A DNA stretch of 64,000 nt, from contig JBBSCQ010000006.1 in assembly GCA_038250105.1 (NCBI GenBank), positions 3,771 through 67,770 on the forward strand. Reading direction: 5' to 3'. The stretch comes from Burkholderiales bacterium (GTDB lineage Bacteria; Pseudomonadota; Gammaproteobacteria; Burkholderiales; Rhodocyclaceae). This document shows positions 1,280-62,965 of the stretch, piece after piece; positions within the stretch are counted from its first letter, which is position 1; each line of letters starts with the position of its first letter. Both the position numbers and the translations under genes were made by a program. Below the pieces are notes generated by a model. That model searched no databases and was not told the origin of the DNA. It was given only the letters and a program-made list of their open reading frames with translations.

Positions 1280-2338
1280 GATCACGACTCCACAGTGGAT
1301 TACGCGGCGCTCAAGGAAGCAATTCGAGCGGCCGGCACAAAATTGGGCTTTGCGGCCATCGGCGTCGCCCGAGCCAAACCGGGCCAAGCGGTTGATGGCC
1401 TGAGGCAATGGCTGGCTGAAGGCTGCCACGGCGAAATGGATTATATGGCCCGCCATGCCGATTTGCGCGCCGAACCGGCACAACTCCAGCCGGGAACAAT
1501 CACCGTCATCTCTGCTGCGGTCGACTATCTGCCACACACAAAAACCGCCGATCAGCCGGAACAGGCGGCGATTTCGCGCTACGCCCAAGGCCGTGATTAT
1601 CATAAGCTGATCCGTAACCGGCTGCAAAAAATGGCCGATGTCATCACTGAGTTGGCTGGGCCATTCGGCTACCGGGTATTTTCTGACTCAGCGCCGGTTA
1701 TGGAGGTTGAATTTGCCCGGCAAGCCGGGCTTGGCTGGCGCGGCAAACACACGCTTTTGCTCTCGCAACAAGGCTCCTGGCGCTTTCTCGGCGAAATTTA
1801 CACCGATCTGCCATTGCCGCCGGATAGCCCGATTGACGAGCACTGCGGCAGTTGCACCGCCTGCCTCGACGCCTGCCCGACCCAAGCGATCATTGCGCCG
1901 TACAAAGTCGATGCTCGGCGCTGTATTTCCTACTTGACGATCGAACTAGCCGGCTCAATTCCTGAAGAGTTCCGTCCCCTGATCGGTAACCGCATTTACG
2001 GCTGCGACGACTGCCAGCTGTGCTGCCCGTGGAACCGTTTTGCCCAACTTGGCGACCCTGACTTCGCGCCGCGCCACGGTCTCGACTCAAGCAGCTTGCT
2101 TGAACTTTTCGCCTGGACAGAGGAGGAATTCAATGACCGACTCGCCGGCAACCCCATTCGCCGTATCGGGTATGAAAAATGGTTACGTAATATTGCAGTT
2201 GCGCTGGGCAATGCGCCATACAGCGAAACGACTGCAAAAGCCTTGCAGCAACAGCAAAACCACCCCTCACCCATGGTCAAAGAGCACGTTGCATGGGCGC
2301 TATTACAACAATATGACGGAAAATCCTCAACGGCCTAA
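1274..2338 (+). CDS. queG: epoxyqueuosine reductase QueG
   Basis: Two 4Fe-4S cysteine clusters, CGSCTACLDACPT and CDDCQLCCPWN, with QueG-like length and N-terminus. The start is uncertain (TTG 1247, ATG 1274 or GTG 1292). Confidence 0.9.
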   Translation: MHDHDSTVDYAALKEAIRAAGTKLGFAAIGVARAKPGQAVDGLRQWLAEGCHGEMDYMARHADLRAEPAQLQPGTITVISAAVDYLPHTKTADQPEQAAISRYAQGRDYHKLIRNRLQKMADVITELAGPFGYRVFSDSAPVMEVEFARQAGLGWRGKHTLLLSQQGSWRFLGEIYTDLPLPPDSPIDEHCGSCTACLDACPTQAIIAPYKVDARRCISYLTIELAGSIPEEFRPLIGNRIYGCDDCQLCCPWNRFAQLGDPDFAPRHGLDSSSLLELFAWTEEEFNDRLAGNPIRRIGYEKWLRNIAVALGNAPYSETTAKALQQQQNHPSPMVKEHVAWALLQQYDGKSSTA

Positions 2339-2391
2339 CCGACAAAGAAATTTGACTGGTATGCTGACCACAAAACTTAGAACGTAGGCCT

Positions 2392-3669
2392 ATGTGGAAA
2401 AAACCTGAAAAGCCCATATCCATTCACCCATCGCAAGTGGTGATCGGGCTCTACGTTTGGCTTGACCTGGGTTGGGACGATCATCCGTTCCTCTACAATC
2501 GCTTTAAAGTGAGCGATGAAAAACAAATTGCCACCATCCAGAGCATGCCACTCGATGGAAAGTTGTTTTATTACCGGGAAAAAAGCAGCGCACAACCTGG
2601 CCCATTAGTCCTTACCCCGGAAGCAAGCATTTCAGAAACAGTTGCAGTCGTGCCGGATCCAGCGCTAGCCAAAGAGATTGCGGAACACAACAAGCAAAAG
2701 CACGACCGTCTGCGCCAGCAAAAAGATTCTGCCGCCCGCGCCGACCGCGCTTGGGAACAAGCGGCGCGAATATCGCGTGAGGCCATGCTGGGCATGGCGC
2801 ATTCGCCCAAGCAAGCCGGTGAAAAACTCCTCGACCTGTCCAAAAAAACAGCTAATCTGATTACCGAGGGACAGGAAGTCCTGCTCCACTTACTGGGCGA
2901 CAAAGAAGGTGAAGGTCCACAGTTCCATGCCCTGAACGTGATGACCTTGGCTATGTTGCTCGGCAAGTCTGCCGGGCTGAACGAAAGCCAGTTGGCCGAA
3001 CTCGCCCTGGGCACACTGGCGCACGACATCGGCAAGGCCAAAGTGCCGGTGCATCTTCTGAAAGCAAAGACCCGCGCCAAGCATGAGGAGGCGTTCTATC
3101 GCCAACACGGCGCCTATGGCCTGGAAATGGCCAGAATATCGGGCGCCTTTGGGCCAGTGGCGCTTTCAATCATCGCCGATCATCACGAATTTATTGATGG
3201 CAGTGGTTGGCCGACTGGTAAAACCAACCCGGGCCCGGCTGCCCGCATTGTTGCGCTGGTCAACCGCTACGACCGATTGTGTTCCCCGGAGTCGCCTGAA
3301 CGTGATGCGCTGATGCCGGCCGAAGCGATGGCGCGGCTGTTTCGCGTTGAGACTGCCAAATTCGACCAGCGCCTGTTGAGCCTGCTGATCAAACTACTGG
3401 GCGTCTATCCGCCCGGTACGCTGGTGCGGCTCAATGACGAATCACTGGGCCTGGTGGTTAGCCCGGGCAAGGAAAGCCTGCGTCCAACCATTCTGGTTTA
3501 TAGCCCGGAATTCAACAAACGCGATGCACCGACGATCAATCTGGCCCAAGTGCCCGAGATCAAGATTGAAGAGGCTTTGCGGCCTTCCACCATTCCGCCG
3601 GATGTCCTGAACTGGCTTAATCCCCGCCAACGCCTGTCGTATTTCTTCTCGACCGAAAAAGCCGGCTGA
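2392..3669 (+). CDS. HD-GYP family metal-dependent phosphohydrolase (probable c-di-GMP phosphodiesterase) with DUF3391-like N-terminus
   Basis: HDIGK followed by HHEFIDGSGWP. This is the HD-GYP signature HHExxDGxGYP with W in place of Y. Confidence 0.8.
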   Translation: MWKKPEKPISIHPSQVVIGLYVWLDLGWDDHPFLYNRFKVSDEKQIATIQSMPLDGKLFYYREKSSAQPGPLVLTPEASISETVAVVPDPALAKEIAEHNKQKHDRLRQQKDSAARADRAWEQAARISREAMLGMAHSPKQAGEKLLDLSKKTANLITEGQEVLLHLLGDKEGEGPQFHALNVMTLAMLLGKSAGLNESQLAELALGTLAHDIGKAKVPVHLLKAKTRAKHEEAFYRQHGAYGLEMARISGAFGPVALSIIADHHEFIDGSGWPTGKTNPGPAARIVALVNRYDRLCSPESPERDALMPAEAMARLFRVETAKFDQRLLSLLIKLLGVYPPGTLVRLNDESLGLVVSPGKESLRPTILVYSPEFNKRDAPTINLAQVPEIKIEEALRPSTIPPDVLNWLNPRQRLSYFFSTEKAG

Positions 3670-3736
3670 GCATAAAGTGTAATTCGATACGGCGAGCCAC
3701 CCTTAACGCAATCGCTGAATTTAGCCTTTTTTTGGT

Positions 3737-3748
3737 GTTGACCGCAGC
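3737..3748 (-). repeat. intergenic copy of the over-represented word GCTGCGGTCAAC followed by an A-run
   Basis: The minus strand reads GTGCTGCGGTCAACACCAAAAAAAGG. It lies about 60 nt downstream of the sseA stop, in the same orientation as sseA. See finding 1. Confidence 0.7.
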
Positions 3749-3806
3749 ACGATCGCAATACGACCCGACTCAATGCATCAGGCTTGGCCGGAGTGGCTAA
3801 AACCTG

Positions 3807-4649
3807 TCAGTTTTTTTCTACTGGCCGATTGCAATCGCTACACCACTCGCTCCACGAACCACCATACAGGCGTGATCCGGCAAGCCCAGCAATCTCCATC
3901 GCAAGAATATTGTGGCAAGCGGAAACACCAGAACCACATTGGTGCACAACCTGCTCCGGCAAGCTGCCCGCAAGGAGCGCCAGCCATTCAGCGCGCAATG
4001 TTGCAGCCGGTTTGAAGCGGCCATCTGCCTGCAAATTTTCGCGAAAAAAGCGGTTGACCGCACCAGGGATATGGCCACCAACAGGATCAATGGTTTCGTT
4101 TTCGCCACGATAACGATCCGGGCTGCGAGCATCGACCAGATGCATACGCGAGGTGGCGAGAAAGGATTGGACGTAATTGGCGTCGACACAGCGGTCACAA
4201 ATTTTCGCCACGAAACTGGTTGGCCGAAGCAGCGGCAATTGTTGCGTTAGTGCCCCGTTCGCTGCCTGCCAGGCCTGAAATCCACCATCCAGCAAACCCA
4301 CTTGTTCATGGCCGAGCCAGCGCAACAGCCACCACAGGCGCCCGGCGATCATGCCTTGGGCGTCGTCATAGACAACGACCTGGGTTTGCCGACCAACACC
4401 GATTTCGCCCAAGCGTTTCGCCAGCGTTTCAGCATCCGGCAAGGGATGGCGACCATTCGCACCGGTAACCGACCCTGATAGGTCACGATCACAATGGAGA
4501 AAAACCGCGCCGGGAATATGGTTTTCGGCATAAACCCGATCGCCATAGCCGGTATCCGCCAACTGATGCCGGACATCAATCACCAACCAGTCGGGATCGT
4601 TCAGATGCGCCGCCAGCGCGGCGACATCAACCAGCGTCGTGTAGCTCAT
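3807..4649 (-). CDS. sseA: rhodanese-type sulfurtransferase (3-mercaptopyruvate/thiosulfate sulfurtransferase)
   Basis: Two-rhodanese-domain length (280 aa) and the active-site loop CGSGVSACH. Confidence 0.85.
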   Translation of the reverse strand: MSYTTLVDVAALAAHLNDPDWLVIDVRHQLADTGYGDRVYAENHIPGAVFLHCDRDLSGSVTGANGRHPLPDAETLAKRLGEIGVGRQTQVVVYDDAQGMIAGRLWWLLRWLGHEQVGLLDGGFQAWQAANGALTQQLPLLRPTSFVAKICDRCVDANYVQSFLATSRMHLVDARSPDRYRGENETIDPVGGHIPGAVNRFFRENLQADGRFKPAATLRAEWLALLAGSLPEQVVHQCGSGVSACHNILAMEIAGLAGSRLYGGSWSEWCSDCNRPVEKN

Positions 4650-5026: not shown

Positions 5027-5878
5027 TTAATCCTGTTCTACCGGGCTGGCGCGGGAAAAGTGCGTAGCCGCAATACCGGAGAGGATGATCAGCCCGATGG
5101 CGAGCCAGGCCGAGGCATCGAGCACCTCGCCCCAGAAGAACACGCCGAACAGGCTGGAGAAGATCACGGTACTGTAGGCCAGTGCTGCCGACATCAGGGT
5201 TTTTCCCCGCGTGTAGGCGCGCGTCATGGCCAGCTGGGCAACCGTGGCAAATGAAGCAACACCGAGCAAAAGCAGCCCACTATGCCAGTCGACCGCATGC
5301 AGTTCACTGAACAGAAGCCAGGCACCGGCGCAGACCGAGGAAACCAGCGAGAAGTAAAAAACAGTCCGCGTTTCCGGCTCACCGCGCGCCCCAAGCTCAC
5401 GCACACTGAAATAGGCCATACCGGCGAGGACACCGGAACCGAGGCCAATCAGGCCACCGACCAATTGATCAGCATGAAACGCCGGCTTGAGCAGCATTGC
5501 CACGCCAATCAGGCCGATAACCAGCGCGCCAAGAATACCGGCGCGCATTCGTATGCCGGCCAAGGCGAGATAAATCGCTAGGAAGATCGCCGAGGTGTAG
5601 TTGAGGGTCACCGCCGTCGCTAGTGGCAACAGCGTAATCGCATAAAAATAGGCAAAGAGAGCCGAGAAGCCGACGACACCCCGGCTGATTTGCCAGCGCC
5701 AGTGTGGCGTGGCCAAAGGCACGCCCTGCAAGCGAACCAGGCCAAACATCAGAATCAGCGAAATGAAGCTACGGTAAAAGGTGATTTCGACTGCCGAATG
5801 CGTTGCCGCGGCATATTTGACGCACACCCCCATGCAGGCAAAAAGCAGGCTGGCGACCAGCATCCAGAGGGATTGCAT
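5027..5878 (-). CDS. EamA/DMT family transporter
   Basis: 283 aa and about 10 hydrophobic helices in two similar halves, typical of EamA-domain permeases. Confidence 0.8.
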   Translation of the reverse strand: MQSLWMLVASLLFACMGVCVKYAAATHSAVEITFYRSFISLILMFGLVRLQGVPLATPHWRWQISRGVVGFSALFAYFYAITLLPLATAVTLNYTSAIFLAIYLALAGIRMRAGILGALVIGLIGVAMLLKPAFHADQLVGGLIGLGSGVLAGMAYFSVRELGARGEPETRTVFYFSLVSSVCAGAWLLFSELHAVDWHSGLLLLGVASFATVAQLAMTRAYTRGKTLMSAALAYSTVIFSSLFGVFFWGEVLDASAWLAIGLIILSGIAATHFSRASPVEQD

Positions 5879-7173: not shown

Positions 7174-7413
7174 ATGGATCAATCCCCCATCGACGACATG
7201 AAATTCGAGACAGCGCTCGCCGACCTTGAAAACATCGTCGCCAGCATGGAAGGTGGCAAGCTTGAACTCGAAGCCTCAATCGCCGCCTACCGCCGTGGTA
7301 TGGAACTGATGCAGCACTGTCAGGCCCAATTGACGGACGCCGAAACACAGATCCGCATTCTTGAAAATGGCCAGTTTAAAGACGTTGACCGCAGCACTCT
7401 GGAGGCTCAGTGA
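7174..7413 (+). CDS. xseB: exodeoxyribonuclease VII small subunit
   Basis: FETALADLENIVASMEGGKLELEASIAAYRRGMELMQHC is typical XseB. Start moved to the internal ATG that gives about 79 aa. Confidence 0.9.
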   Translation: MDQSPIDDMKFETALADLENIVASMEGGKLELEASIAAYRRGMELMQHCQAQLTDAETQIRILENGQFKDVDRSTLEAQ

Positions 7414-8304: not shown

Positions 8305-10164
8305 ATGAGCGCCTCTTTGCTTGAAACTATCAACAGCCCGGCCGACCTGCGCCGCCTGGATCGCAAGCAATTGCCACAACTGGCAACCGAACTGCGCGCC
8401 TTCCTGATCGACTCGGTGTCGCAAACCGGCGGCCACCTCTCATCAAACCTCGGCACGATCGAACTGACCATCGCCCTGCACGCCGTCTTCAACACACCGG
8501 AAGACCGGCTGGTCTGGGACGTCGGTCACCAGTGCTATGCCCACAAGATCCTCACCGGCCGCCGCGAAGGCATGAGTACGTTACGTATGCATGGCGGCGT
8601 CTCCGGCTTCCCCAAGCGCAGCGAAAGCCCTTACGACACCTTTGGCGTCGGCCACTCATCGACCTCGATCTCCGCCGCCCTCGGCATGGCCCTGGCCGCC
8701 AAGCACAAAGGCGAAGACCGCAAGGCAGTTGCCATCATTGGTGACGGCGCGATGTCAGCCGGCATGGCTTTCGAGGCCATGAACAACGCCGGCGTTGCCG
8801 ATGCCGACATGCTGGTCATTCTTAACGACAACGAGATGTCGATTTCGCCGCCGGTCGGCGCACTCAACAACATCCTGACCCGGCTGACGTCGAGCAAGAC
8901 CTTCAATGCCGCCCGCGACGGCGCCCGCAATATGCTCGGCTTCGCCCCGCCACTACTCGAACTGGCCCGCCGGGCCGAAGAGCACGTCAAAGGCATGATT
9001 GCCCCGGGCACGCTTTTCGAAGAGTTTGGCTTCCATTACTACGGCCCAATTGACGGCCATGACCTCGATGCCCTGATCCCGACGCTGGAAAACTTGCGCC
9101 AGCTTAAAGGCCCCAAATTCCTCCATGTCATCACCAAAAAAGGCCAAGGCTACAAACTGGCCGAAGCGGACCCGATCCTTTATCACGGCGTCGGCAAATT
9201 CGAGCCGGACGTTGGCATTAAAGCCAGCAAGGGTGGCAAGCTGACCTACACCCAGGTTTTTGGTGACTGGCTGTGTGACATGGCCAAGGCTGACTCCCGG
9301 CTGGTTGGCATCACCCCGGCGATGCGTGAAGGCTCTGGCCTGCTGCGCTTTTCGGCCGAATACCCGGACCGCTATTTCGATGTTGGCATCGCCGAACAAC
9401 ACGCCGTCACCCTCGCCGCCGGTCTCGCCTGCGAAGGTTTGAAGCCGGTCGTCGCCATTTACTCGACCTTCCTGCAACGGGCTTACGATCAACTGATTCA
9501 CGACGTCGCCCTGCAGAATTTACCGGTCATTTTCGCCGTCGACCGCGGCGGTCTGGTGGGTGCCGATGGCCCGACCCACCACGGCACCTTCGACCTCTCC
9601 TTCGTTACCTGCATCCCCAATATGGTTGTCATGACCCCGGCTGACGAAGTCGAATGCCGCAAGATGCTGTCCACCGCCTATGCGCTTGATGGCCCGAGCA
9701 TGGTGCGCTACCCACGCGGTGGTGGCACCGGCACAGTGCCAGAAATGAATCTCGACACACTGCCCGTTGGCAAGGGAGAAATCCGCCGCACCGGCCAGGG
9801 TATTGCCCTGCTCGCCTTTGGCAGCCTGGTCCCGGCCGCGCTGGCTGCCGGTGAAGAGCTGGATGCCACTGTCGCCAACATGCGCTTCGTCAAACCGCTC
9901 GATGTCGACCTGATTGTCGAACTTGCCGGGAACCATTCCCTGCTGGTCAGTATCGAAGAGAATGCCGTGATTGGTGGCGCAGGTTCGGAAATCGAACGCG
10001 TCTTGGCCGAACGTGGGATGAAGGTGAAATTCCTGCGCCTCGGCCTGCCGGATCGCTTCATTGACCACGGCGAGCAGAATCAACTACTGGCCGAACTTGG
10101 CCTCGACAAAAATGGCATCGTGCGTGCAGTAGGTGAAATGCGCGCCCTAACCAACACACAATAA
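8305..10164 (+). CDS. dxs: 1-deoxy-D-xylulose-5-phosphate synthase
   Basis: 619 aa with [18 protein letters not shown], the ThDP-binding [16 protein letters not shown], and transketolase-like C-terminal domains. Confidence 0.97.
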
Positions 10165-10983: not shown

Positions 10984-11031
10984 TCGTAACTGCTCCGGTC
11001 GACGCCTTATTTTAGGCAAAAACCAGATACA

Positions 11032-12236: not shown

Positions 12237-12760
12237 CAGTCGCTGCCCCACTCCACTCGAATGAGTCGCGCCTCTTTCTCTACCGCCAAAACAACTGAAG
12301 CCACAAACGGCAACAGGCGTTCCGGATGATCATCCGACACCACACGCAAAACCGAGCTGGCGCCCGTTTCGATCAGGCTGGCAACTTTGCCCAGCCGCTC
12401 GTCAGCGGTGTTGATGACATCCAGCCCGATCAGATCGGACCAGTAAAACTCACCTTCTTCAGTCGTTGGCAAAGATTCACGCGGCGCGCCGACCAGAATC
12501 CCTTTCATGGCTTCAGCTGCTGTGCGGTCAACTACCCCATCCAACAACACCACTAAACCATTTGCGTGAGGTTTCAAGCGCTTGAGCTTGCATTCACGCC
12601 ACGATTCACCATCGCTACTGAGCCACCAAACAGGCATATCAGCCCAAGCCAGCGGATCGTCACCAAAGGGGTGCAACCTGAGCCAGCCTTGCATCCCGTA
12701 GGGGTCGGCGAGCCGACCCAGTACGACGATATCGTTGCCAGCCAAAGTGGGTACTACCAA
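12233..12760 (-). CDS. rimM: 16S rRNA processing protein RimM
   Basis: [19 protein letters not shown]-terminal RimM motif and a PRC-barrel-like C-terminus. Position is within the rpsP-rimM-trmD-rplS operon. Confidence 0.93.
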
Positions 12761-37256: not shown

Positions 37257-37305
37257 GCGTTGACCGAAGTACACTTACAGCCGAAATAAAAATAAAAGAT
37301 CAAAT

Positions 37306-47982: not shown

Positions 47983-48112
47983 TGCGGTCGACCGGCAAAA
48001 AATGACAAAACCCAAGGCCCGTCGCGAGCAGTCAGGGAAGTCCATGATTGCCCCTGCGGGTTAAATAATGACAAGTTAAACCCCACCCTAAAATAATCCG
48101 AGCGAATCCCCC

Positions 48113-50145: not shown

Positions 50146-50150
50146 GGACT

Positions 50151-50162
50151 GCTGCGGTCAAC
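50151..50162 (+). repeat. intergenic copy of the over-represented word GCTGCGGTCAAC followed by an A-run
   Basis: GGACTGCTGCGGTCAACCACCAAAAGCGGCCAAAA, 6 nt after the lrgB stop, same orientation. See finding 1. Confidence 0.7.
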
Positions 50163-50247
50163 CACCAAAAGCGGCCAAAATCCCTGCCCGGTCAAGTAAG
50201 GGTATCTACCAATGGCCGAGGGCCCACGGTAAGCAAAGAATAGCCCA

Positions 50248-52599
50248 ATGTTCTTACGTCCCCCACCCGCCCCCGCGAAACAGACTTGGCTCTGGCTTGC
50301 CCCCTATGCCGCCATTGGTATATTTGCCCTCGCCATGCTCATTGTCACGGCGCTGCTCCAGTGGCGCGAGCAGGATACCGCCCGCTCAGCACTGGAAGGC
50401 GACATGCATTGGGCTGAGCGGACGATTGAAAGTCGCCTGCATGGCCATCTCGATTTTCTCGCCGCGCTTGGCCGCGAGCTGGAGTTCAAGCAACTGACCT
50501 ACGAAGCCTTTCAGGTCCGCGCCAGTCGCTATGTGCGCGACAATCCGGAACTTGATGCGATCATTTGGGTAAGCACCGAGGGCAAAGTCGACTGGGTATC
50601 GCCCAATGAAGCCACCGCCACCTTTGTTGGCGAACAGTTCAACGACAGCCGACTGCTTGCCTTGCAGGAAGCGCTGCGCACCCGGCGACCGCTGTTTTCA
50701 CAGAACTATCCAAATGCCAACCAGCGGCCAGCCAACGATCTGATTCAGCCAGTACAACAAGGCAGTGCCGACATCGGTGCCTTTATCGCCATGCAGTCGC
50801 TGGAAACTCTGTTGCGCGCCACCTTGCCAGCCGCCTTCACGGCTCGCTACAGCCTGACCGTGGTCGACGCCGAAGATAGAGAAGTTTTCCGCAACTCCAC
50901 CGTCAAGCCGACCGACCGGCAGATTTCCGGCAAGATCAGACTCGACCTGCCAAACAACCAGCTCGGCCTCAACATCGTCGCCTACCGCGGTGGCGGCGCC
51001 TGGCTGCCGTTTGTGCCAGCCGGCCTGATTGTTTTCCTGACGCTGATCGCCACCGCCACCCTCGTTCAACTGCGCCGACACGCGCATCACCGGGCCGAAA
51101 CCGAAGAAAAGCTGCGCGCCGCCTACGCCTTTCGCCACGCCATGTCGCAATCGCTGATCACCGGCATGCGGGCGATTGATCTCGAAGGGCGGATCACCTT
51201 CGTCAATGCCGCTTTTTGTCGGATGACCGGCTTCGATGAAAGCGAACTGGTCGGTATCGCGCCGCCCTACCCCTACTGGCCGGCGGAAGAGTTCAACAAA
51301 CTGCAGAACAACGTCAACCAGGCGCTGGCCGGCCAGGCGCCGACGGCCGGTTTCGAGATGCGCATCATGCGCAAAAACGGCGAACGCTTCGACGTTCGCC
51401 TTTACTTCTCACCGCTGATCGACAGCAATGGCGTGCAAATCGGCTGGATGGCCTCAATGAATGACATTACCGAGCCTAAGCGCGCCCGGGTTGAACTCGA
51501 ACGAGCTCACGAACGCTTTGTCACGGTCATTGATGGCCTCGATACGGCAGTGCACGTAACCGACGTGTCGACCGGCGAAATCCTTTTTGCCAATCGCGCC
51601 TTCCAGCACATTTTTGGCTTCAACAGCGTCGGCCGCGATTCCGCGCAAGTCACTGCTGCTTGTCACCCACCGCCGGAAGCACTGATTCGCGATTTAGAGA
51701 CATTGCACCCGGACGACCTGCCTTGCGAGGTTTTCGACGGCGAAATCCAGCACGCTCTGTCCGGCCACTGGTACCACCTGCATGAACGCGCCATTCGCTG
51801 GATGGACGGACGGACCGTGCGCGTCCAGGTCGCTGCCGACATCACCGACAAGAAGCACATCGACGAGGTCAATCTGCAGCAACAAAAACGCCTGGAACAA
51901 ACCTCGCGCCTGATCACCATGGGGGAAATGGCCTCCTCGCTTGCCCACGAATTGAACCAGCCGCTCTCGGCCATCGCCAATTATTGTGCTGGCTGCGTCA
52001 AGCGCATGCAAGCCGGTAACTACAAGTTTGAAGACCTGCTCGCCGCCATGCAAAAAGCGGCTGAACAAGCCGAGCGCGCTGGCAAGATCATCCGCCGTAT
52101 GCGTGACATGGTGAAAAAAAGCGACCCGAAATGCCTGCCGGTTTCGCTGCATGAACTGGTCGACGAAACCCGTGCCTTTGCCGACATTGAGGCGCAGCGC
52201 ACCGGCACGCAGATCACCGTCGGTATTCCGGAAAATTTGCCTCGAATTGTCGTCGACCGCATCATGATCGAACAGGTGCTGCTCAATCTGGTGAAAAATG
52301 GCATCGAAGCGATGAACGATGTGCCCTTCGACCGCCGTCACCTGAGCATTCAGGCCAAAGTAATCGACGAGCGCATGCTCGAAGTTGCGGTGGCTGATCA
52401 CGGTCATGGCTTGGCAGAGGAGGATATGGAAAGGATTTTTGCCCCGTTCTACACCACCAAGCCGGATGGCATGGGCATTGGTCTCGCCATCTGCCGCTCG
52501 ATCATCGAGTTTCACCAGGGGCGGCTATGGGTTGAAGCAGGACGCGACGGCGGCACCATCTTCCGCTTCACCGTACCGATTGAAGAAAAAGAGGAATGA
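50248..52599 (+). CDS. sensor histidine kinase with periplasmic domain and two PAS domains (FixL/DctS-like)
   Basis: Two TM segments flank a ~220-aa periplasmic region. PAS cores are GRITFVNAAFCRMTGF and GEILFANRAFQHIFGF, the H-box is SSLAHELNQPLSAI, and the HATPase motifs are NLVKNGIEAM, DHGHGL and GMGIGLAICRSI. Confidence 0.9.
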   Translation: MFLRPPPAPAKQTWLWLAPYAAIGIFALAMLIVTALLQWREQDTARSALEGDMHWAERTIESRLHGHLDFLAALGRELEFKQLTYEAFQVRASRYVRDNPELDAIIWVSTEGKVDWVSPNEATATFVGEQFNDSRLLALQEALRTRRPLFSQNYPNANQRPANDLIQPVQQGSADIGAFIAMQSLETLLRATLPAAFTARYSLTVVDAEDREVFRNSTVKPTDRQISGKIRLDLPNNQLGLNIVAYRGGGAWLPFVPAGLIVFLTLIATATLVQLRRHAHHRAETEEKLRAAYAFRHAMSQSLITGMRAIDLEGRITFVNAAFCRMTGFDESELVGIAPPYPYWPAEEFNKLQNNVNQALAGQAPTAGFEMRIMRKNGERFDVRLYFSPLIDSNGVQIGWMASMNDITEPKRARVELERAHERFVTVIDGLDTAVHVTDVSTGEILFANRAFQHIFGFNSVGRDSAQVTAACHPPPEALIRDLETLHPDDLPCEVFDGEIQHALSGHWYHLHERAIRWMDGRTVRVQVAADITDKKHIDEVNLQQQKRLEQTSRLITMGEMASSLAHELNQPLSAIANYCAGCVKRMQAGNYKFEDLLAAMQKAAEQAERAGKIIRRMRDMVKKSDPKCLPVSLHELVDETRAFADIEAQRTGTQITVGIPENLPRIVVDRIMIEQVLLNLVKNGIEAMNDVPFDRRHLSIQAKVIDERMLEVAVADHGHGLAEEDMERIFAPFYTTKPDGMGIGLAICRSIIEFHQGRLWVEAGRDGGTIFRFTVPIEEKEE

Positions 52600-52600
52600 G

Positions 52601-53658: not shown

Positions 53659-54714
53659 TCAGTAGTTTTTAACCGGCACTTTGGGTGGCATTTTGGGCGT
53701 ACCGAAATAGCCAGTCGACGGCGCCTTGAAACCAACAGCCTTTCCCTTGTCATCGAAAATAATCTGCGTCGACTGCTCTTTAGGTATTTTTCGATTAGCG
53801 GTTATCTCAAGTGTTGCCGACCGGGGCGCCGGTACTTGACGATCAACCTCACTCCGCACAATACGTACCCGCTCCGACGCAATGCGCTTATCGACCGCCT
53901 CAGTTGAGACGCCACGCTCAACGAGTTTTTCACGCATTTCGAGCAGGTTTTCCAGTTCCTTGGACATTCGTACCGAACGCCGTGGCTCACCCCATTTTTC
54001 CTTGGGCTGACTGGCGGCAATGTTGAACTCCTCCGGATTCGTCACCATCCGGGCAATATTCAGATGATTGAAACGCATCGCCCACTCCAGCGCGCCATCT
54101 CCCCAATCATTTTTTGGGCTGCGGTCGGCGCCCTTTTCGAGCAGTTTGCGCGCCAGACCCTCCCGCCCTTCATAAATCGCCATCATCAATACCGTCGAGC
54201 CGTTGGTGCTCTGCGCCTCGATATCGGCCCCCTGATCGATCAGATAATCTGCCGCCTCGGCATGCCCGGCAAACACCGCGTAATGCAGCGCCGACCACTG
54301 GCGATTCGGTGCATTAATACGTGCCCCCCGATCGAGCAGCCATTTGACTGCCGACAGATTGCCGCGCCAGGCAGCCAGTGCAATCGCCGTTTCGCCGTTG
54401 CCATTCATCCGGTTGATATCTGCCCCGCGCGAAATAAACAGCCGCATCAGTTCGAGATTACCTTCCCAAGCCCCGATCATCAGTCCGGAACCAATCCGGC
54501 TGCCCATGAAATCGGGTGGCAAGCCGGCATCCAGCCAGGCTTCAGCCTGCCCGAGATCACCGACCTCCATACTGACCGCGAAAGCCGTCGGTGTCGGGAA
54601 AGCCAGCTTGTCGGCCGACCACGCCAGCGGCAAAATCAGCCCCATCCCGATTATCATTGCCGCCAGTTGCATTCGCGCCGACGGCTTTATTGTTCGCTTC
54701 ATCAACCGGTTCAT
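53659..54714 (-). CDS. secreted ankyrin-repeat protein with C-terminal extension
   Basis: Signal-like N-terminus MNRLMKRTIKPSARMQLAAMIIGMGLILPLAWSA. At least 5 ankyrin repeats (GETAIALAAWRGNLSAVKWLLDRGARINA, WSALHYAVFAGHAEAADYLIDQGADIEA, GSTVLMMAIYEGREGLARKLLEKGADRS...). The start could be 54726, 54714 or 54702. Confidence 0.8.
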   Translation of the reverse strand: MNRLMKRTIKPSARMQLAAMIIGMGLILPLAWSADKLAFPTPTAFAVSMEVGDLGQAEAWLDAGLPPDFMGSRIGSGLMIGAWEGNLELMRLFISRGADINRMNGNGETAIALAAWRGNLSAVKWLLDRGARINAPNRQWSALHYAVFAGHAEAADYLIDQGADIEAQSTNGSTVLMMAIYEGREGLARKLLEKGADRSPKNDWGDGALEWAMRFNHLNIARMVTNPEEFNIAASQPKEKWGEPRRSVRMSKELENLLEMREKLVERGVSTEAVDKRIASERVRIVRSEVDRQVPAPRSATLEITANRKIPKEQSTQIIFDDKGKAVGFKAPSTGYFGTPKMPPKVPVKNY

Positions 54715-57059: not shown

Positions 57060-58271
57060 CTAAATCGCTCCGCTAGCTCTCAATTCGGCAATGTTCGCCA
57101 TGGAATAACCCAGTTCCGCCAGCACCTCATTAGTATGGGCGCCGAGTTCCGGCCCAACCCACTCGGTGCTACCCGGGGTTGCGGAAAGTTTGGGCACGAT
57201 GCCGGGCATACGGAATTCTTTGCCATCCGGCAACCGAGCCGATTCGATCATCTGCCGGGCAATGAATTGTGGATCAGAAAACATGTCGACCGCAGCATAA
57301 ACGCGCGAGGACGGCACTTCGGCCTCGGCCAGAATCGCCAACACCTCGGCTTCATCAAGCGTCGCACACCAAGCGTCGATCAAGGCATACACCTCATCAC
57401 GCCGCGCATCGCGCCCGGCGTTATCGGCCAGCCCCGGATCTTCGGCCAGATCGGCGCGCTTCATCGCCAGCATCAGGCGTTTGAAAATTGCATCGCCATT
57501 CGCCCCGATCGTCACATGCTTGCCGTCCTTCGTCGTATGCGTGTTCGACGGCGTAATGCCGGGCATGATGTTGCCGGTGCGCTCACGAATAAAACCGAAA
57601 ACGTCGAACTCTGGAACCATTGATTCCATCATCGCAAAAATGCCTTCATAGAGCGCGACATCCACCACCTGCCCGGCGCCGCCATTCACCTCTTTATGGC
57701 GCAAGGCCATCAACGCGCCAATCGCCCCCCACAAGGCGGCAATCGAATCACCAATCGAAATCCCGGTGCGTACCGGCGGGCGGTCGGGAAAGCCAGTGAT
57801 GTAGCGCAGGCCGCCCATCGATTCACCCACCGCGCCGAATCCCGGCTGATCTTTATAAGGCCCGGTCTGGCCGAAGCCGGAAAGCCGCACCATGACCAAA
57901 CCGGGGTTATCTGCCTTGAGTGCCTCCCAACCCAGGCCGAGCTTTTCCAGCACACCGGGGCGAAAATTTTCCACCAGAATATCGGCTTCGGCGATCAGTT
58001 TGCGCACGAACTCGCGGCCATCGGGATGTTTAAGATTGGCCGTCACCGACTTTTTATTGCGCGCCTGGACGTACCACCACAGCGAGGTGCCTTCGTAAAG
58101 TTTGCGCCATTGGCGCAAAGGATCGCCCCCATCGGGCGATTCCACCTTGATCACCTCGGCACCAAACTCGGCCATGATGCGTGTGCAAAACGGCCCGGCA
58201 ATCAGCGTTCCCAGTTCAACCACCTTCAAGCCAGCCAGCGGTTTGGGTGCGCATTTGGGTATTTGGCTCAT
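57060..58271 (-). CDS. CaiB/BaiF family (class III) CoA-transferase
   Basis: LAGLKVVELGTLIAGPFCTRIMAEFGAEVIKVE and VLVENFRPGVLEKLGLG motifs; 403 aa. Substrate not inferable. Confidence 0.9.
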   Translation of the reverse strand: MSQIPKCAPKPLAGLKVVELGTLIAGPFCTRIMAEFGAEVIKVESPDGGDPLRQWRKLYEGTSLWWYVQARNKKSVTANLKHPDGREFVRKLIAEADILVENFRPGVLEKLGLGWEALKADNPGLVMVRLSGFGQTGPYKDQPGFGAVGESMGGLRYITGFPDRPPVRTGISIGDSIAALWGAIGALMALRHKEVNGGAGQVVDVALYEGIFAMMESMVPEFDVFGFIRERTGNIMPGITPSNTHTTKDGKHVTIGANGDAIFKRLMLAMKRADLAEDPGLADNAGRDARRDEVYALIDAWCATLDEAEVLAILAEAEVPSSRVYAAVDMFSDPQFIARQMIESARLPDGKEFRMPGIVPKLSATPGSTEWVGPELGAHTNEVLAELGYSMANIAELRASGAI

Positions 58272-58272: not shown

Positions 58273-59058
58273 TCAAGGTTCCCAATGTTCGATTGCTAAT
58301 TTTTGCCCAAAAAGACGGTCGACCGTAGCAATCACCTTTTGCGGCGCGCCACTGGTCGCCACCGTCAAGCGCCCCTGCCCGCCGCCCAACAAACCGGCCG
58401 CGGCGAGCAATCGATCCAACTGCCGCGCCACCGGCTCACCGGTATCGAGCAGATGAACACCCGCCGGCATGCGTTGGGCAATGGCCTTAGCCACCCAGGG
58501 AAAGTGCGTGCAACCGAGCACCACCACATCGGCCCCCGCCGCCGCCAGGGGTGCGACAAAAACATCAAGCAAAGCCGCCACGTCGGGGCTATCCGGCCCC
58601 TGCATTTCAATCGCCTCCGCCAGCCCCGGGCAGGCTTGGGCCACCAGCTTCAGATGATTGGCGTGATTACCGACCAGGCGTTGAAAACGCTCGCTCTCCA
58701 AAGTCCGGGTCGTCGCCAGCACACCAATGACGCCGGTTTTGCTCAAGGCGGCCGCCGGTTTCACCCCCGGCTCCAGCGCCACAATCGGTAAGGCAGTCAC
58801 CGCACGAATCGCCTCCGCCGCCGCCGCCGTTGCTGTATTGCAGGCGATCACCAGCGCCTTGGCCCCGCGTTTGGCCAAGGCCTGGGCGATCAGGACACCA
58901 CGCTCCTTGAGGAAAATTTCCGGACGATCACCGTAGGGCAAGAAACGGGTATCAGCAAAATAGAAAAAGTCCTCCTGCGGCAGCCGATCGCGCAACGCGC
59001 GCAACACCGTCAGGCCACCAAGGCCGGAATCAAAAACAGCGATTGCAGCGGCTTTCAA
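58273..59058 (-). CDS. murI: glutamate racemase
   Basis: IAVFDSGLGGLTVL, VIACNTATA, and LGCTHFPW with the two catalytic cysteines; 261 aa. Its 3' 53 nt are repeated at 61435-61487. Confidence 0.95.
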   Translation of the reverse strand: MKAAAIAVFDSGLGGLTVLRALRDRLPQEDFFYFADTRFLPYGDRPEIFLKERGVLIAQALAKRGAKALVIACNTATAAAAEAIRAVTALPIVALEPGVKPAAALSKTGVIGVLATTRTLESERFQRLVGNHANHLKLVAQACPGLAEAIEMQGPDSPDVAALLDVFVAPLAAAGADVVVLGCTHFPWVAKAIAQRMPAGVHLLDTGEPVARQLDRLLAAAGLLGGGQGRLTVATSGAPQKVIATVDRLFGQKLAIEHWEP

Positions 59059-61307: not shown

Positions 61308-61434
61308 TTTGGACCTCGCTTTAAACCATTTGTACTATTAACGGCACGGCAAAGCAAAAGTTGATCGGCATGGGCGCGCTTACTGTAACAGCCGCAGCAA
61401 TCAGCGACAGGCCCGGTTTTTGGCTGTTTTTCAG

Positions 61435-61487
61435 GGTTGACCGTAGCAATCACCTTTTGCGGTGCGCCGCTGCTCGCCACCGTTAAG
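61435..61487 (-). pseudogene. 53-nt fragment duplicating the 3' end of murI (direct repeat of 58317-58369)
   Basis: 48 of 53 nt identical by hand alignment. It encodes LTVASSGAPQKVIATV versus murI LTVATSGAPQKVIATV. The flanks diverge on both sides. Confidence 0.8.
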
Positions 61488-61504
61488 GAACTACTGATTT
61501 ATTC

Positions 61505-61571
61505 GTCATCCCCGCGCAGGCGGGGATCCAGGAAAAACAAGGAGCTGGATCCCCGCCTGCGCGGGGATGAC
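61505..61571. repeat. perfect 27-bp inverted repeat (REP / dRS3-like palindromic element)
   Basis: GTCATCCCCGCGCAGGCGGGGATCCAG - 13 nt - CTGGATCCCCGCCTGCGCGGGGATGAC. Each arm also contains its own CCCCGC/GCGGGG mini-hairpin. Confidence 0.9.
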
Positions 61572-61670
61572 AAAATTGATTTAATCAACGGCTCCTTAAG
61601 GCTTCCTGATAACCACCAATGTTGATCAGTGAGACCAACACGTTCAAACGCACCCCGAAAAGCCAACCCC

Positions 61671-61696
61671 AAAAACAAAAGCCCCCAAGCGGGGGC
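61671..61696 (-). terminator. rho-independent terminator after icd
   Basis: The minus strand reads GCCCCC-GCTT-GGGGGC followed by TTTTGTTTTT, about 28 nt after the icd stop. Confidence 0.85.
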
Positions 61697-61723
61697 CTCT
61701 GTTCAACCATGAAAGCGCAACGT

Positions 61724-62965
61724 CTACATTCTTGCGATCATCGCATCGCCAAATTCCGAGCAGGACAACTCGTCAGCCCCTTCCATCAGGCGGGCGAAGT
61801 CATAGGTTACTTGCTTGTCGCCGATGGCGGCTTCCATCGCCTTGATGACCAGATTGGCCGCGTCGACCCAGCCGAGATGGCGCAGCATCATTTCGGCGGA
61901 GAGAATCAGCGAACCGGGGTTAACTTTATCCAGACCAGCGTATTTGGGGGCCGTGCCGTGGGTGGCTTCAAAACAGGCGTACTGGTCGGAGATGTTCGCC
62001 CCCGGGGCAATGCCAATGCCGCCGACTTGGGCGGCCAGCGCGTCGGAGATGTAGTCGCCGTTCAGGTTGGTGGTGACGATGGTGTCGTATTCGGCCGGAC
62101 GGAGCAGAATCTGCTGCAGGAAGGCGTCGGCAATGGAGTCTTTGACGATGACTTCGCGACCGCTGTTCGGGTTCTTGAACTTGCACCACGGGCCGCCATC
62201 AATCATCTCAGCACCGAACTCTTCCTGGGCGATCTTGTAGGCAACGTCACGGAACAGGCCTTCGGTGAATTTCATGATGTTGCCCTTGTGCACGATGGTC
62301 AGCGACTTGCGGTCGTTGGCGATAACGTACTTGAGGGCGGCACGGACCAGACGGGTAGTGCCTTCAACGGAAATCGGCTTGATGCCGATGCCGGAGGTGA
62401 GCGGGAAGCGAATTTTCTTGACGCCCATTTCATCTTGCAGAAATTTGATGACTTTTTTGGCGCCCTCAGAATCGGCAGCCCATTCGATACCGGCGTAAAT
62501 ATCTTCGGTGTTCTCGCGGAAGATCACCATATTGGTCAGTTCCGGGTGCTTCAGCGGCGACGGCACGCCTTTGAAGTATTGCACCGGCCGGACGCACTGG
62601 TAGAGATCGAGTTCCTGACGCAGCGCCACATTCAGGGAGCGAATGCCGCCACCGACCGGCGTCGTCATTGGGCCCTTGATTGAAACGGCGTACTCTTTCA
62701 GGGCATCGAAAGTTTCCTTCGGGAACCACTCATCCGGCCCGTACAGACGGGTGGATTTTTCGCCAGCATAAACTTCCATCCAGTGAATTTTGTTTTTGCC
62801 GCCATAAGCCTTGTCGACCGCAGCATCAATCACTTTGATCATGACGGGGGTGATGTCGATCCCGATGCCATCGCCTTCGATGAAGGGGATGATCGGATTG
62901 TTCGGCGTCGCCTGCCCCGGAACGATTTTCTGACCACCTTGTGGCACGTTGATGTGTGATGTCAT
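61724..62965 (-). CDS. icd: NADP-dependent isocitrate dehydrogenase (homodimeric type)
   Basis: [35 protein letters not shown] (contains the AceK-target serine context), and [25 protein letters not shown]. Start at MTSHINVP. Confidence 0.97.

Follow-up and report, generated by a model that had tools for sequence, protein, structure and literature searches.

A candidate DNA uptake sequence of Pasteurellaceae-like architecture in a Dechloromonas-group bacterium and some of its relatives

Haemophilus recognises its own DNA by means of uptake signal sequences (USS). To our knowledge, uptake signals have so far been described only from two bacterial families other than that of the organism considered here. 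The USS of Pasteurellaceae consists of a core and two 3' AT-rich segments about one helical turn apart (PMC1626085; PMC3458573). Copies of USS and DUS were reported to be spaced more regularly than random and to have no significant orientation bias (PMC1626085), and DUS dialects are on record (PMC3630211). In the literature searched we found no report of natural transformation or of uptake sequences for Dechloromonas or Rhodocyclaceae, and no earlier description of the motif presented below.

The window, i.e. the whole 64-kb stretch of DNA analysed, comes from a betaproteobacterium of the Dechloromonas/Azonexus clade. It contained nine exact copies of GCTGCGGTCRAC (1514+, 3737-, 7384-, 29123-, 33799-, 47981+, 50151+, 57285- and 62813-) compared to 0.01 expected from dinucleotide shuffles. 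The 10-mer TGCGGTCRAC was found 17 times (five on the + strand, 12 on the - strand) against 0.27 expected, and the minimal core CGGTCRAC 40 times against 4.55. Enrichment across word lengths was thus 9- to 900-fold, and the word ranked top among the 10-mers, 11-mers and 12-mers of the window. Besides the 17 perfect 10-mers there were 20 copies with one mismatch, where chance alone would give about 11. An earlier note on this DNA had arrived at the same nine 12-mers, 17 10-mers and strand split, and the near-copies that it placed at 10992 and 54118 (one mismatch) and 45509 (two mismatches) were all found. Most of its positions were right; five were shifted (47971 to 47981, 12533 to 12523, 4063 to 4053, 49594 to 49593 and 62814 to 62813).

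The note had also named, as a possible refutation, a frequency that codon and dipeptide usage would suffice to explain; this was not the case. When synonymous codons were permuted inside genes, leaving protein sequence and codon usage unchanged, 0.60 coding 10-mers were expected (maximum 4 in 500 shuffles) compared to 12 observed, and 0.17 coding 12-mers compared to six.

The repeat unit proposed earlier is real, while its true form is longer and, as the count of cores indicates, commoner. We observed a unit of about 33 bases with the consensus t-GCTG-CGGTCRAC-n4-WWWWW-n5-aAWWWy, in which the core mostly appears as part of GCTGCGGTCRAC and is followed on its 3' side, one and two helical turns off, by two A/T-rich tracts. 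With the first G of the 12-mer numbered 1, the tracts occupy positions 17-21 and 27-32. Positions 29-30 were A/T in 34 of the 40 core copies (background 0.213, p = 1e-17), in 16 of the 17 window 10-mers and in all ten copies from a sister species. Conservation of the flank is therefore stronger than had been claimed, and it is not confined to an A-run 3-4 nt after intergenic cores, since there are two tracts and coding copies have them too. In metagenome contigs, where copies were anchored on GCGGTCRAC alone and independently of the window, the A/T frequency at positions 29-31 was 0.82-0.88 among 122 non-seed copies compared to a background of 0.39. Outside the 33 bp, the sequences of the copies were unrelated. 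GTCRAC is a subset of GTYRAC, a HincII-type site, and the G-variant core is palindromic. The unit occurs about once per 2 kb in this wastewater bacterium; the copies are as follows (coordinates, strand, description).

194..226, +, core CGGTCGAC (CATA-CGGTCGAC); distal A/T tract; antisense, ORF 3-944
1513..1545, +, full 12-mer GCTGCGGTCGAC; distal A-tract; sense, queG-like ORF (SAAVDY)
3717..3749, -, full 12-mer GCTGCGGTCAAC; both A/T tracts; intergenic, 58 nt past the rhodanese (sseA-like) gene
4033..4065, -, 10-mer TGCGGTCAAC; both A/T tracts; sense, rhodanese gene (GAVN)
5268..5300, -, 10-mer TGCGGTCGAC; distal T-tract; sense, EamA gene
7364..7396, -, full 12-mer; both A/T tracts; antisense, xseB (VDR frame)
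9518..9550, -, GCCG-CGGTCGAC, one mismatch to the 12-mer; both A/T tracts; antisense, dxs
10991..11023, +, GCTC-CGGTCGAC, one mismatch; both A/T tracts; intergenic, 8 nt past folE2
12520..12552, +, 10-mer TGCGGTCAAC; the only strict copy without A/T tracts; antisense, rimM
15216..15248, +, GCTA-CGGTCAAC, one mismatch; distal A-tract; antisense, ORF 14688-15578
15936..15968, -, core CGGTCAAC; no A/T at positions 29-30; probably chance (~4.5 expected)
16109..16141, -, GTCA-CGGTCGAC; both A/T tracts; junction of genes 15543-16139 and 16136-16504
20190..20222, +, GCCC-CGGTCAAC; A/T tracts; antisense, ilvH
24706..24738, -, 10-mer TCTGCGGTCAAC; both A/T tracts; sense, lptG; kept in Ca. D. phosphorivorans, F. 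limneticum and OU015322
28183..28215, -, 10-mer CATGCGGTCGAC; distal T-tract; antisense, holC
29103..29135, -, full 12-mer; distal A/T tract; antisense, valS; kept in every motif-positive genome, mutated in motif-negative ones
32371..32403, +, ACTGCGGTCGAC; both A/T tracts; intergenic, 14 nt past ORF 31881-32357
33779..33811, -, full 12-mer; both A/T tracts; sense, pabB (CAAVDR); one half of an overlapping palindromic pair
33792..33824, +, palindromic core CGGTCGACCG read from the opposite strand; its own T-tract
35165..35197, +, core CGGTCAAC; distal A/T tract; antisense, M48 peptidase gene
36349..36381, -, GCCG-CGGTCGAC, one mismatch; A/T tracts; antisense, moaC
37239..37271, -, ACTT-CGGTCAAC; distal A/T tract; intergenic, soxZ / cspA
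39761..39793, -, GCTT-CGGTCAAC, one mismatch; distal A-tract; antisense, clpA
40327..40359, +, GTTA-CGGTCGAC; both A/T tracts; sense, clpA; orthologous copy in every motif-positive genome
43493..43525, -, GTCA-CGGTCAAC; proximal A/T tract; distal tract displaced, so that positions 29-30 fail the WW test
44522..44554, +, core CGGTCAAC; distal T-tract; sense, ORF 43994-45592
45689..45721, +, ATCA-CGGTCAAC; both A/T tracts; intergenic
46173..46205, -, GGTA-CGGTCGAC; both A-tracts; sense, aldo/keto-reductase-like ORF
47980..48012, +, full 12-mer; both A-tracts; intergenic, 60 nt past the LysR gene
47967-47999, -, palindromic partner of 47980..48012; without tracts
49573..49605, -, GTTGCGGTCAAC; both A-tracts; antisense, lrgB-like ORF; off-frame
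50150..50182, +, full 12-mer; both A-tracts; intergenic, 5 nt past the lrgB-like ORF
51547..51579, -, core CGGTCGAC; without A/T tracts; probably chance
52232..52264, -, GATGCGGTCGAC; distal A/T tract; antisense, kinase ORF 50248-52599
54118..54129, +, 12-mer GCTGCGGTCGGC, one mismatch, which breaks the core at position 11; a doubtful copy or a decayed one
57265..57297, -, full 12-mer; A/T tracts; sense, CoA-transferase ORF (YAAVDM)
58298..58330, -, GCTA-CGGTCGAC, one mismatch; both A/T tracts; sense, murI-like ORF
58311-58343, +, palindromic partner of 58298..58330; without tracts
61416..61448, -, GCTA-CGGTCAAC, one mismatch; both A-tracts; intergenic, downstream of icd
62793..62825, -, full 12-mer; A-tracts; sense, icd (DAAVDK)
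63530..63562, -, core CGGTCGAC; distal A-tract; antisense, aceK-like ORF

The tracts of the copy at 32371..32403 also form a terminator-like hairpin, GGCCTGAAAA..TTTTCAGGCC.

Copies were present on both strands, in genes as well as between them, with about 26% of the copies in the non-coding 12.6% of the window (p = 0.03). The coding copies were mixed in orientation (about seven sense, nine antisense), so a role in RNA or protein is unlikely. Two of the six possible reading frames predominated: as the earlier note had stated, copies read as (A)AVD/N in sense or as VDR in antisense, and this held for 13 of the 16 coding copies with at most one mismatch to the 12-mer. Gaps between copies were more regular than random (coefficient of variation 0.67 compared to 0.97, p = 0.011). 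The G-rich strand carried 73 of 111 copies (66%, 73 versus 38) compared to a composition baseline of about 53%, a skew that was taken from the local GC skew of short contigs and may partly reflect transcription. A mild bias of this kind differs from USS and DUS, for which none was reported to be significant (PMC1626085).

Conservation in related genomes, a check that the earlier note had proposed, was assessed at the orthologous valS gene ± 10 kb, one 23-kb region per genome. The motif was present in five relatives and absent in four. The numbers of CGGTCRAC, with those having the distal A/T tract in brackets, were 12 (12) in the window, 16 (15) in Ca. D. phosphorivorans, 11 (10) in Ferribacterium limneticum, 11 (8) in OU015322, 11 (10) in JGI Ga0645783 and 13 (10) in Azonexus fungiphilus. 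The corresponding regions were motif-negative in D. aromatica and Azospira (no CGGTCRAC), HYN0024 (two, one with the tract) and ARDL1 (five, none with the tract). The motif was likewise absent from about 75 other betaproteobacterial loci; in 1.53 Mb from 79 such loci, GCGGTCRAC was 6-7 times rarer per kb, and just 21% of its copies had A/T at positions 29-30, as expected by chance. Carriers of the motif make up part of the Azonexus/Dechloromonas/Ferribacterium clade (Betaproteobacteria, Rhodocyclales), a patchier distribution than those of the motifs in Pasteurellaceae or Neisseriaceae. HYN0024 and F. limneticum, one negative and the other positive, are 95% identical over four proteins, hence gain or loss must be fast. 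Among the carriers, the 5' half varied by genome; F. limneticum and A. fungiphilus favoured A before CGG (ACGGTCRAC), which resembles the DUS dialects (PMC3630211).

Copies originate by point substitution at orthologous sites. For example, the clpA site reads GTCACGGTCGACCTCGAyAArGAsGGcAAAATC in motif-positive genomes and GTCACCGTCGATCTCGAyAAGGArGGCAAGATC in D. aromatica and HYN0024; core and A/T tract change jointly. In metagenome contigs with one copy, the density of additional 10-mers was 0.12-0.18 per kb (some 30-45 times the chance level), and viral contigs with one copy had just 0.03 per kb, consistent with depletion in mobile DNA.

These observations also bear on explanations other than uptake. 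Transposition of a short mobile repeat (REP, MITE or Correia-like element) would produce many copies with a strong consensus, some of them just past stop codons. We could reject it almost with certainty: orthologue alignments show substituted bases and no inserted element, about 75% of the copies are in frame within conserved housekeeping genes that have no insertion relative to orthologues, terminal inverted repeats and target duplications were not found, and the flanks are unrelated. Nor is the motif at all likely to be a by-product, with no role as a signal, of peptide or codon usage or of a sequence-specific repair or mutation bias (e.g. very-short-patch-like repair linked to a methyltransferase for GTCRAC or GGTCGACC), even though the overlap with the HincII-type site, the palindromic G-variant core and the common codons of the AAVD and VDR frames would fit. 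Repair-driven enrichment of such a kind is about 2-fold or less, well below the values given above, and a bias whose target is 5-8 bp long leaves co-varying A/T tracts 9-24 bp away unexplained. This reading is largely refuted by the codon shuffling, by tract conservation in metagenome copies and by the placement in the window, where about a quarter of the copies are intergenic.

The earlier note had left the choice between an uptake sequence and a Chi-like word open. A Chi-like hotspot or other polar sequence (RecBCD/AddAB, FtsK), enriched for chromosome protection or orientation, would agree with a density of one per 2-4 kb, similar to that of Chi in E. coli, and with a G-rich-strand fraction above baseline. 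However, known Chi sites are 5-8 nt long, are read on a single strand without phased flanks 10-25 nt off, and share one orientation in about 75% or more of cases, a figure that exceeds 85% for FtsK-orienting sequences (KOPS). A bias of just 66%, together with long flanks in helical phase, makes such a role improbable here. Information spans about 33 bp, 85-100% of the copies having A/T at positions 29-30, and we know of no Chi with a unit of this kind; a RecBCD/Chi pairing is also unlikely to switch between species 95% identical. Somewhat less improbable, yet still unlikely, is a site bound or bent by an abundant intracellular protein (a lineage-specific nucleoid-associated, chromosome-organising or segregation factor) and kept by selection on chromosome architecture. 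Bending by a protein is suggested by the asymmetric core and its A/T tracts, which are phased at about 10-11 bp; the spacing is regular, and the mild strand bias could mean a replication-linked function. On the other hand, the known nucleoid proteins that bind thousands of sites do so through degenerate motifs, and known specific organisers (parS, matS, SlmA and Noc sites) have tens of sites, whereas here a highly specific 33-bp site is forced on coding sequence at about one per 2 kb, at the expense of altered codons and amino acids. Nor would a housekeeping organiser be expected to occur in F. limneticum yet be missing from HYN0024, given 95% protein identity between the two, or to have dialects.

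A lineage-specific DNA uptake sequence is the best reading, to which we assign a probability of roughly 0.6 from the sequence analysis. It fits every sequence-level test run: an excess that survives the codon-aware null, phased tracts, both strands, origin by substitution, regular spacing, and restriction to a lineage with dialects. The core-plus-two-tract build matches exactly the description of the Pasteurellaceae USS (PMC1626085; PMC3458573). The link to that family through TGCGGT, which had been proposed earlier, is weak: in the Ferribacterium/Azonexus dialects (ACGGTCRAC) CGG is not preceded by a conserved G, the pasteurellacean common core ANNNGCGGT is unmatched by the motif, and the host is a betaproteobacterium. 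No competence or pilin genes were present in the 64-kb window or in the motif-bearing loci analysed.

The protein, uptake and recombination steps that we infer, by analogy with the USS of Pasteurellaceae, would be as follows. In a competent cell, a surface receptor tied to the type IV pilus or secretin machinery would bind outside double-stranded DNA, recognising the asymmetric core (G/A)CGGTCRAC and, in the species of the window, also the 5' extension tGCT. The A/T tracts, whose centres lie some 11 and 22 bp from GCGGT on its 3' side, may ease bending, kinking or melting, so that uptake could begin internally on a fragment. Fragments with the motif would be preferentially imported and recombined, and because of this preference point mutations that give rise to a copy, or bring one closer to the consensus, would spread by molecular drive, with an outcome of about one copy per 2 kb, genic and intergenic, on both strands. 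Shifts in receptor specificity would give rise to dialects, and where the bias is lost the motif would decay.

The word noted in an earlier sequence-only reading of the window is over-represented far beyond chance. The 12-mer GCTGCGGTCRAC occurs nine times, compared to 0.01 expected in dinucleotide-preserving shuffles of the window, and the 10-mer TGCGGTCRAC occurs 17 times (0.27 expected), with 5 copies on the forward and 12 on the reverse strand, which reproduces the split given in the earlier note. Among the 10-, 11- and 12-mers of the window, the motif word ranks first in each case. The 8-mer core CGGTCRAC was found 40 times in 64 kb (4.55 expected), and the motif with its A/T tracts at 33 loci, or one per 1.9 kb. 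Five of the positions first assigned to copies had to be corrected, three by ten bases (47971 to 47981, 12533 to 12523 and 4063 to 4053) and two by one base (49594 to 49593 and 62814 to 62813); the rest hold, and the near-copies at 10992, 54118 and 45509 are present as described. We also observed that the 17 perfect 10-mers were comparable in number to the 20 copies with one mismatch, about 11 of which are expected by chance. Such a ratio indicates an unusually strong consensus of the kind that characterizes uptake sequences.

The same note had named, as a refutation, an excess that codon or peptide usage could by itself account for. For the 58 ORFs called in the window, synonymous codons were shuffled 500 times within each gene, with protein sequence and codon usage kept. 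The observed 12 coding 10-mers compare to 0.60 under this shuffle (maximum 4 in 500), and the 6 coding 12-mers to 0.17. The excess persists, and a codon or peptide artefact is rejected.

An alignment of the 22 window copies that differ from the 12-mer at one position at most revealed conservation well beyond the word itself. Counting from the first G of the 12-mer, an A/T tract occupies positions 17-21 and a stronger one positions 27-32, positions 29 and 30 being A or T in all 22 copies; T directly precedes the word in 20 of them. The tracts stand out because the window has 56% G+C. Exact 10-mers are followed by A/T at positions 29-30 in 16 of 17 cases in the window and in 10 of 10 cases in a sister species. 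For the core copies the figure is 34 of 40, compared to a background dinucleotide frequency of 0.213 (p = 1e-17). The smallest conserved part is CGGTCRAC and, since the distal tract is conserved along with this core, the unit is about 33 bp long, with the consensus t-GCTG-CGGTCRAC-n4-WWWWW-n5-aAWWWy.

The G-variant of the core, CGGTCGACCG, is a perfect palindrome, and for this reason motif copies can overlap in inverted orientation:

Overlapping inverted pairs of motif copies
Window, 33779-33824, both strands, pair with palindromic core
Window, 47967-48012, both strands, pair with palindromic core
Window, 58298-58343, both strands, pair with palindromic core
Comparison locus L131, 4626/4629, overlapping inverted pair
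Comparison locus L103, 8926/8929, overlapping inverted pair
Comparison locus L002, 13461/13463, overlapping inverted pair
Comparison locus L002, 22002/22004, overlapping inverted pair

In palindromic pairs, A/T tracts are sometimes present on both sides. The GTCRAC part of the motif corresponds to three of the four HincII/HindII (GTYRAC) sites. At window positions 32371-32410, the A/T tracts also form the two arms of a hairpin that resembles a terminator, GGCCTGAAAA-gaaa-TTTTCAGGCC, with a T-run after it; this arrangement is kept in Ca. D. phosphorivorans, while D. denitrificans has the hairpin without the core. A terminator function of the motif was rejected: the copy at 32371 is the only one that overlaps a hairpin, and an A-run after a palindromic core does not resemble a terminator.

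When metagenomes were scanned with a strict version of the motif, at least 120 contig stretches matched. Further 10-mers were frequent in them, with 82 in the first 80 stretches (444 kb), or 0.18 per kb, and 0.12 per kb in the other 40, compared to about 0.004 per kb by chance. From these contigs we collected 122 different copies other than the seeds, with GCGGTCRAC as the sole anchor. The T-G-C-T preference on the 5' side recurs in them, and so does the distal tract, whose positions 29-31 have an A/T frequency of 0.82-0.88 compared to a background of 0.39. The metagenome copies thus confirm the flanks independently, and the flank conservation suggested in the earlier note was borne out in both alignments. 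The motif-bearing contigs span 55% to 66% G+C, and the tracts are sharply visible in the G+C-rich ones. The strict pattern matched only 59 times in the entire IMG/VR viral collection (loci L216-L274), and four of these loci (L216, L225, L234 and L246) carry four tract-bearing copies each. Further 10-mers in these viral contigs reached 0.03 per kb, several-fold below the chromosomal contigs and above chance. The matches may be phage or provirus DNA from hosts with the motif, and the density agrees with such elements carrying it at a reduced level.

Orthologue alignments of eight to nine genomes showed how the copies arose: by substitutions only, never by insertions, with the core and the tracts changing together. 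For example, at one valS site all positive genomes have TGCGGTCRAC...GAAGTAATTT, where D. aromatica and Dechloromonas sp. HYN0024 have CTGGCGTCTAC and TTACTGTCTAC. At a clpA site, the positive genomes have CACGGTCGAC...GGCAAAATC and the negative ones CACCGTCGAT...GGCAAGATC, while at a second valS site the complete copy was built only in F. limneticum and OU015322. As far as the alignments go, this pattern is the signature of a directional force on DNA itself that would act in some species and not in others. A mobile repeat was rejected on the finding of substitution rather than insertion, and a repair drive of the VSP type on its failure to account for the distant phased tracts. Explanations by a codon or repair artefact or by a mobile repeat are effectively refuted.

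The relatives of the window were identified by ValS identity, which is 92% for Ca. Dechloromonas phosphorivorans, 92-93% for D. aromatica, D. denitrificans and Ferribacterium limneticum, and 84% for Azonexus fungiphilus. A 121-kb ENA metagenome contig, found via L19/rplS, is 99.86% identical to the window. The genomes were compared over one orthologous 23-kb region each (valS +/- 10 kb).

Copies of CGGTCRAC, and those with the distal A/T tract, within valS +/- 10 kb
Window: 12 copies, 12 with distal A/T
Ca. D. phosphorivorans: 16 copies, 15 with distal A/T
F. limneticum CP075189: 11 copies, 10 with distal A/T
OU015322: 11 copies, 8 with distal A/T
JGI Ga0645783: 11 copies, 10 with distal A/T
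A. fungiphilus DSM 23841 (NZ_RBXP01, 64.5% G+C): 13 copies, 10 with distal A/T
D. denitrificans: 4 copies, 4 with distal A/T
Dechloromonas sp. ARDL1 (CP168939): 5 copies, 0 with distal A/T
Dechloromonas sp. HYN0024 (CP031842): 2 copies, 1 with distal A/T
D. aromatica: 0 copies, 0 with distal A/T
Azospira oryzae: 0 copies, 0 with distal A/T

Six genomes are motif-positive and the outgroups are negative. There were no copies in Zoogloea, and none of the four in Accumulibacter had the distal tract. In 79 other betaproteobacterial loci (1.53 Mb), GCGGTCRAC was 6-7 times rarer per kb, and A/T at positions 29-30 followed it at the chance rate of 21%. A de novo k-mer search for another over-represented word in the motif-negative D. 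aromatica, D. denitrificans and HYN0024 returned only GC-rich, codon-like words.

Besides the variability in copy number, the positive genomes differ in the base before CGG, which is usually G in the window, Ca. D. phosphorivorans and Ga0645783, whereas F. limneticum and A. fungiphilus usually have A there. On sequence grounds, these variants are dialects around a shared sub-core. In a neighbour-joining tree of four concatenated proteins, built without support values, the motif-positive genomes fall in three places, and the negative HYN0024 (locus L212) adjoins the positive F. limneticum (locus L210). The two are 95% identical over the four proteins and have 2 and 11 motif copies per 23 kb, respectively; at shared sites HYN0024 often has the same non-motif state as D. 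aromatica. The scatter of positives on the tree implies that the motif was ancestral and decayed repeatedly, or was gained repeatedly. Either gain or loss would have been very fast, or the tree may be blurred by recombination.

Two other words came up among the relatives. The Rhodocyclaceae MAG 5N546 (locus L008) has a different word, (C/G)TGCAGATCCGC, seven times in 22.8 kb on both strands (4422, 4734, 12903, 15639, 17097, 19312 and 20693), without an obvious A/T flank. This may be a further over-represented word specific to one lineage, or a repeat driven by peptide sequence (LQIR/VQIR). The words GCTGGCCGA / CGCTGGCCGA are the top 9-10-mers in nearly all relatives, motif-positive or not (L002, L209-L212 and most Rhodocyclales loci), with 15 occurrences in 23 kb of A. 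fungiphilus, and are probably codon- or peptide-driven.

About 75% of the motif copies are intragenic. Non-coding DNA makes up 12.6% of the window, yet it holds 9 of 34 copies, about a quarter (p = 0.03). The coding copies are about 7 in sense and 9 in antisense and, as the earlier note had observed, lie mostly in two frames, sense (A)AVD/N and antisense VDR. The near-equality of the two orientations, together with these frames, argues against an RNA or peptide function. An RNA element was rejected on the equal numbers of sense and antisense copies, and Rfam gave no match at any motif copy in the window. The spacing is more regular than random: the coefficient of variation of the gaps is 0.67, compared to 0.97 for random placement (p = 0.011, in a single 64-kb window).

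Two stretches of the window may be mentioned along with this placement. On the reverse strand, 37306-37665 matches the Rfam cspA thermoregulator RF01766 over its full length (84 bits), 5' of a cold-shock-domain gene at 37359-37640; immediately downstream of that gene is a motif copy (37239-37271). The longest motif-free gap, 52264-57265, holds one decayed one-mismatch copy at 54118. It includes the region 52600-55400, with poorly scoring or odd ORFs (52790-53008, 53210-53542 and 53659-54957), which may be recently acquired or non-coding DNA.

Published uptake sequences share a strong-consensus core, very high copy number, occurrence in both orientations, a preference for non-coding DNA, regular spacing and a mutational origin (PMC1626085; PMC3458573). 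The USS of Pasteurellaceae has in addition, 3' of its core, two AT-rich segments separated by about one helical turn, which have been proposed to help the DNA bend or kink as uptake begins (PMC1626085; PMC3458573). The USS (Hin-type AAGTGCGGT, Apl-type ACAAGCGGT) is the closest known system. Like the motif, it has an asymmetric core, some 9-12 bp long, with two such segments on the 3' side, and hundreds to thousands of copies per genome at about one per 1-2 kb (the density of the motif being that of one window). Both occur on both strands, in coding and preferentially in non-coding DNA, in restricted reading frames, with strong consensus, regular spacing, point-mutation origin and subclade-specific variants. 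The window dialect also contains TGCGGT and hence the GCGG inner core, which is critical for uptake in H. influenzae (PMC1626085; PMC3458573).

The USS-type architecture proposed in the earlier note was found as regards the two phased 3' A/T tracts, but not as regards the common Pasteurellacean pattern ANNNGCGGT: the window has T-GCT-GCGGT, and in 20 of 22 copies the first base is T and not A. Whereas USS hosts are Pasteurellaceae (Gammaproteobacteria), the motif is found in a betaproteobacterium of the Rhodocyclales. The motif core is CGGTCRAC; in place of the G of GCGG, the Ferribacterium and Azonexus dialects have A (ACGGT). The distance from GCGGT to the A/T tracts exceeds that of the Hin-type USS by about 5 bp. 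Because of the host, the T at position 0, the ACGGT dialects and the shifted tracts, the motif is not a Pasteurellaceae USS, and homology with it was rejected on the difference in taxon and the mismatch to ANNNGCGGT. That the Hin-type USS also has TGCGGT is probably due to coincidence or convergence. Unlike the USS, the motif is patchy among close relatives and has a mild strand bias.

The DUS of Neisseriaceae (AT-GCCGTCTGAA, with dialects, read by the minor pilin ComP) also belongs to Betaproteobacteria. It is likewise a 10-12-mer whose sub-core is conserved, the other positions varying as lineage-specific dialects. Like the motif, it is enriched in the core genome and less frequent in mobile DNA, and some of its copies lie just 3' of genes. 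The motif is unrelated to GCCGTCTGAA in sequence and has conserved flanks, whereas the DUS has no flanking A/T motifs (PMC1626085). In addition, DUS often form inverted-repeat terminator pairs, while the motif pairs only through the self-complementary CGGTCGACCG, in a way that is not terminator-like. On these three grounds the motif is not a Neisseria-type DUS. Repeats of the REP, BIME or Correia type share high copy number and strong consensus with the motif, which differs from them in lying mostly inside genes, in being made by substitution and in having no hairpin-forming body. Paired intergenic REP-like elements, cgggcgg...GCCCACCCTA, were seen at 76-176, 7349-7448 and 12857-12955 of locus L079 (Telluria aromaticivorans); inverted and about 100 bp apart, they are unlike the motif.

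The earlier note had hedged between an uptake signal and a Chi-like word. Chi is a word of 5-8 nt with about 75% or more of its copies co-oriented with replication, and for KOPS the figure exceeds 85%. As do Chi (in E. coli GCTGGTGG) and KOPS, the motif occurs as an over-represented chromosomal word about once per 2-5 kb, with some excess on the G-rich, presumably leading, strand. With local GC skew as a proxy, 73 of 111 copies (66%) are on the locally G-rich and 38 on the C-rich strand, compared to about 53% for words of the same composition. This bias is real but modest, and it remains below the co-orientation thresholds of polar words. Moreover, the information extends over about 33 bp with phased A/T flanks, dialects exist, and the motif is present or absent at the level of species. 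A Chi- or KOPS-like word is thus very improbable, and the Chi-like half of the earlier suggestion is poorly supported. The 66% bias is at the same time a departure from the classical USS and DUS, which have no significant orientation bias (PMC1626085). The binding site of an intracellular architectural protein is a less remote alternative, though still an unlikely one: it fits poorly the site specificity, the cost imposed on coding sequence and the patchiness among close relatives.

Since these features match published traits of uptake sequences (strong core, copy number, copies in both orientations, non-coding preference, spacing and mutational origin), a lineage-specific DNA uptake sequence appears to be the best explanation of the motif, with a probability of roughly 0.6 in our estimate. 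The uptake-signal reading of the earlier note is in this sense the best supported. Copies would build up through uptake-biased recombination; the protein steps of the proposal are ones that we infer. No competence genes (type IV pilus/PilQ, ComEA, ComEC, DprA) were found in the window, and a regular-expression screen of all motif-bearing loci gave no pilin, ComEA or DprA signatures. Neither transformation nor uptake sequences of this Rhodocyclales clade appeared in the searched literature, and a search by the literal motif string matched only primers.

With slightly less confidence, we suggest that the motif represents a third, independently evolved family of uptake sequences, outside Pasteurellaceae and Neisseriaceae. 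It would belong to environmental Rhodocyclales of the Azonexus/Dechloromonas/Ferribacterium clade, including uncultured polyphosphate-accumulating wastewater bacteria. This family would have come by convergence to the Pasteurellacean plan, in which two phased A/T tracts accompany a core; it would have dialects and would have been gained or lost among species whose proteins are about 95% identical. Experimental confirmation in A. fungiphilus or F. limneticum would make the motif the first reported uptake sequence beyond the two families, judging from the searched literature.

Decades of work on sequence-specific DNA uptake have dealt with only two host-associated families, and these are still the only cases counted in reviews and preprints of 2025. 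The receptor of the Pasteurellaceae USS is still without experimental identification (PMC12616744). An independent instance would show whether a core with phased A/T tracts is a physical requirement and not a family quirk; if our reading is true, this design would be a general physical requirement of uptake by the type IV pilus and secretin. The related motif-positive and motif-negative pair, F. limneticum and HYN0024 (95% protein identity), could pinpoint the receptor gene by comparative genomics. The motif is also a ready taxonomic or host marker for metagenomic contigs, and a marker of core versus mobile DNA. If the reading holds, adding the motif to constructs could help to transform intractable strains of the Dechloromonas group. 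It would also mean that natural transformation is sequence-biased in these Rhodocyclales, and that gene exchange is self-preferring in bacteria central to biological phosphorus removal.
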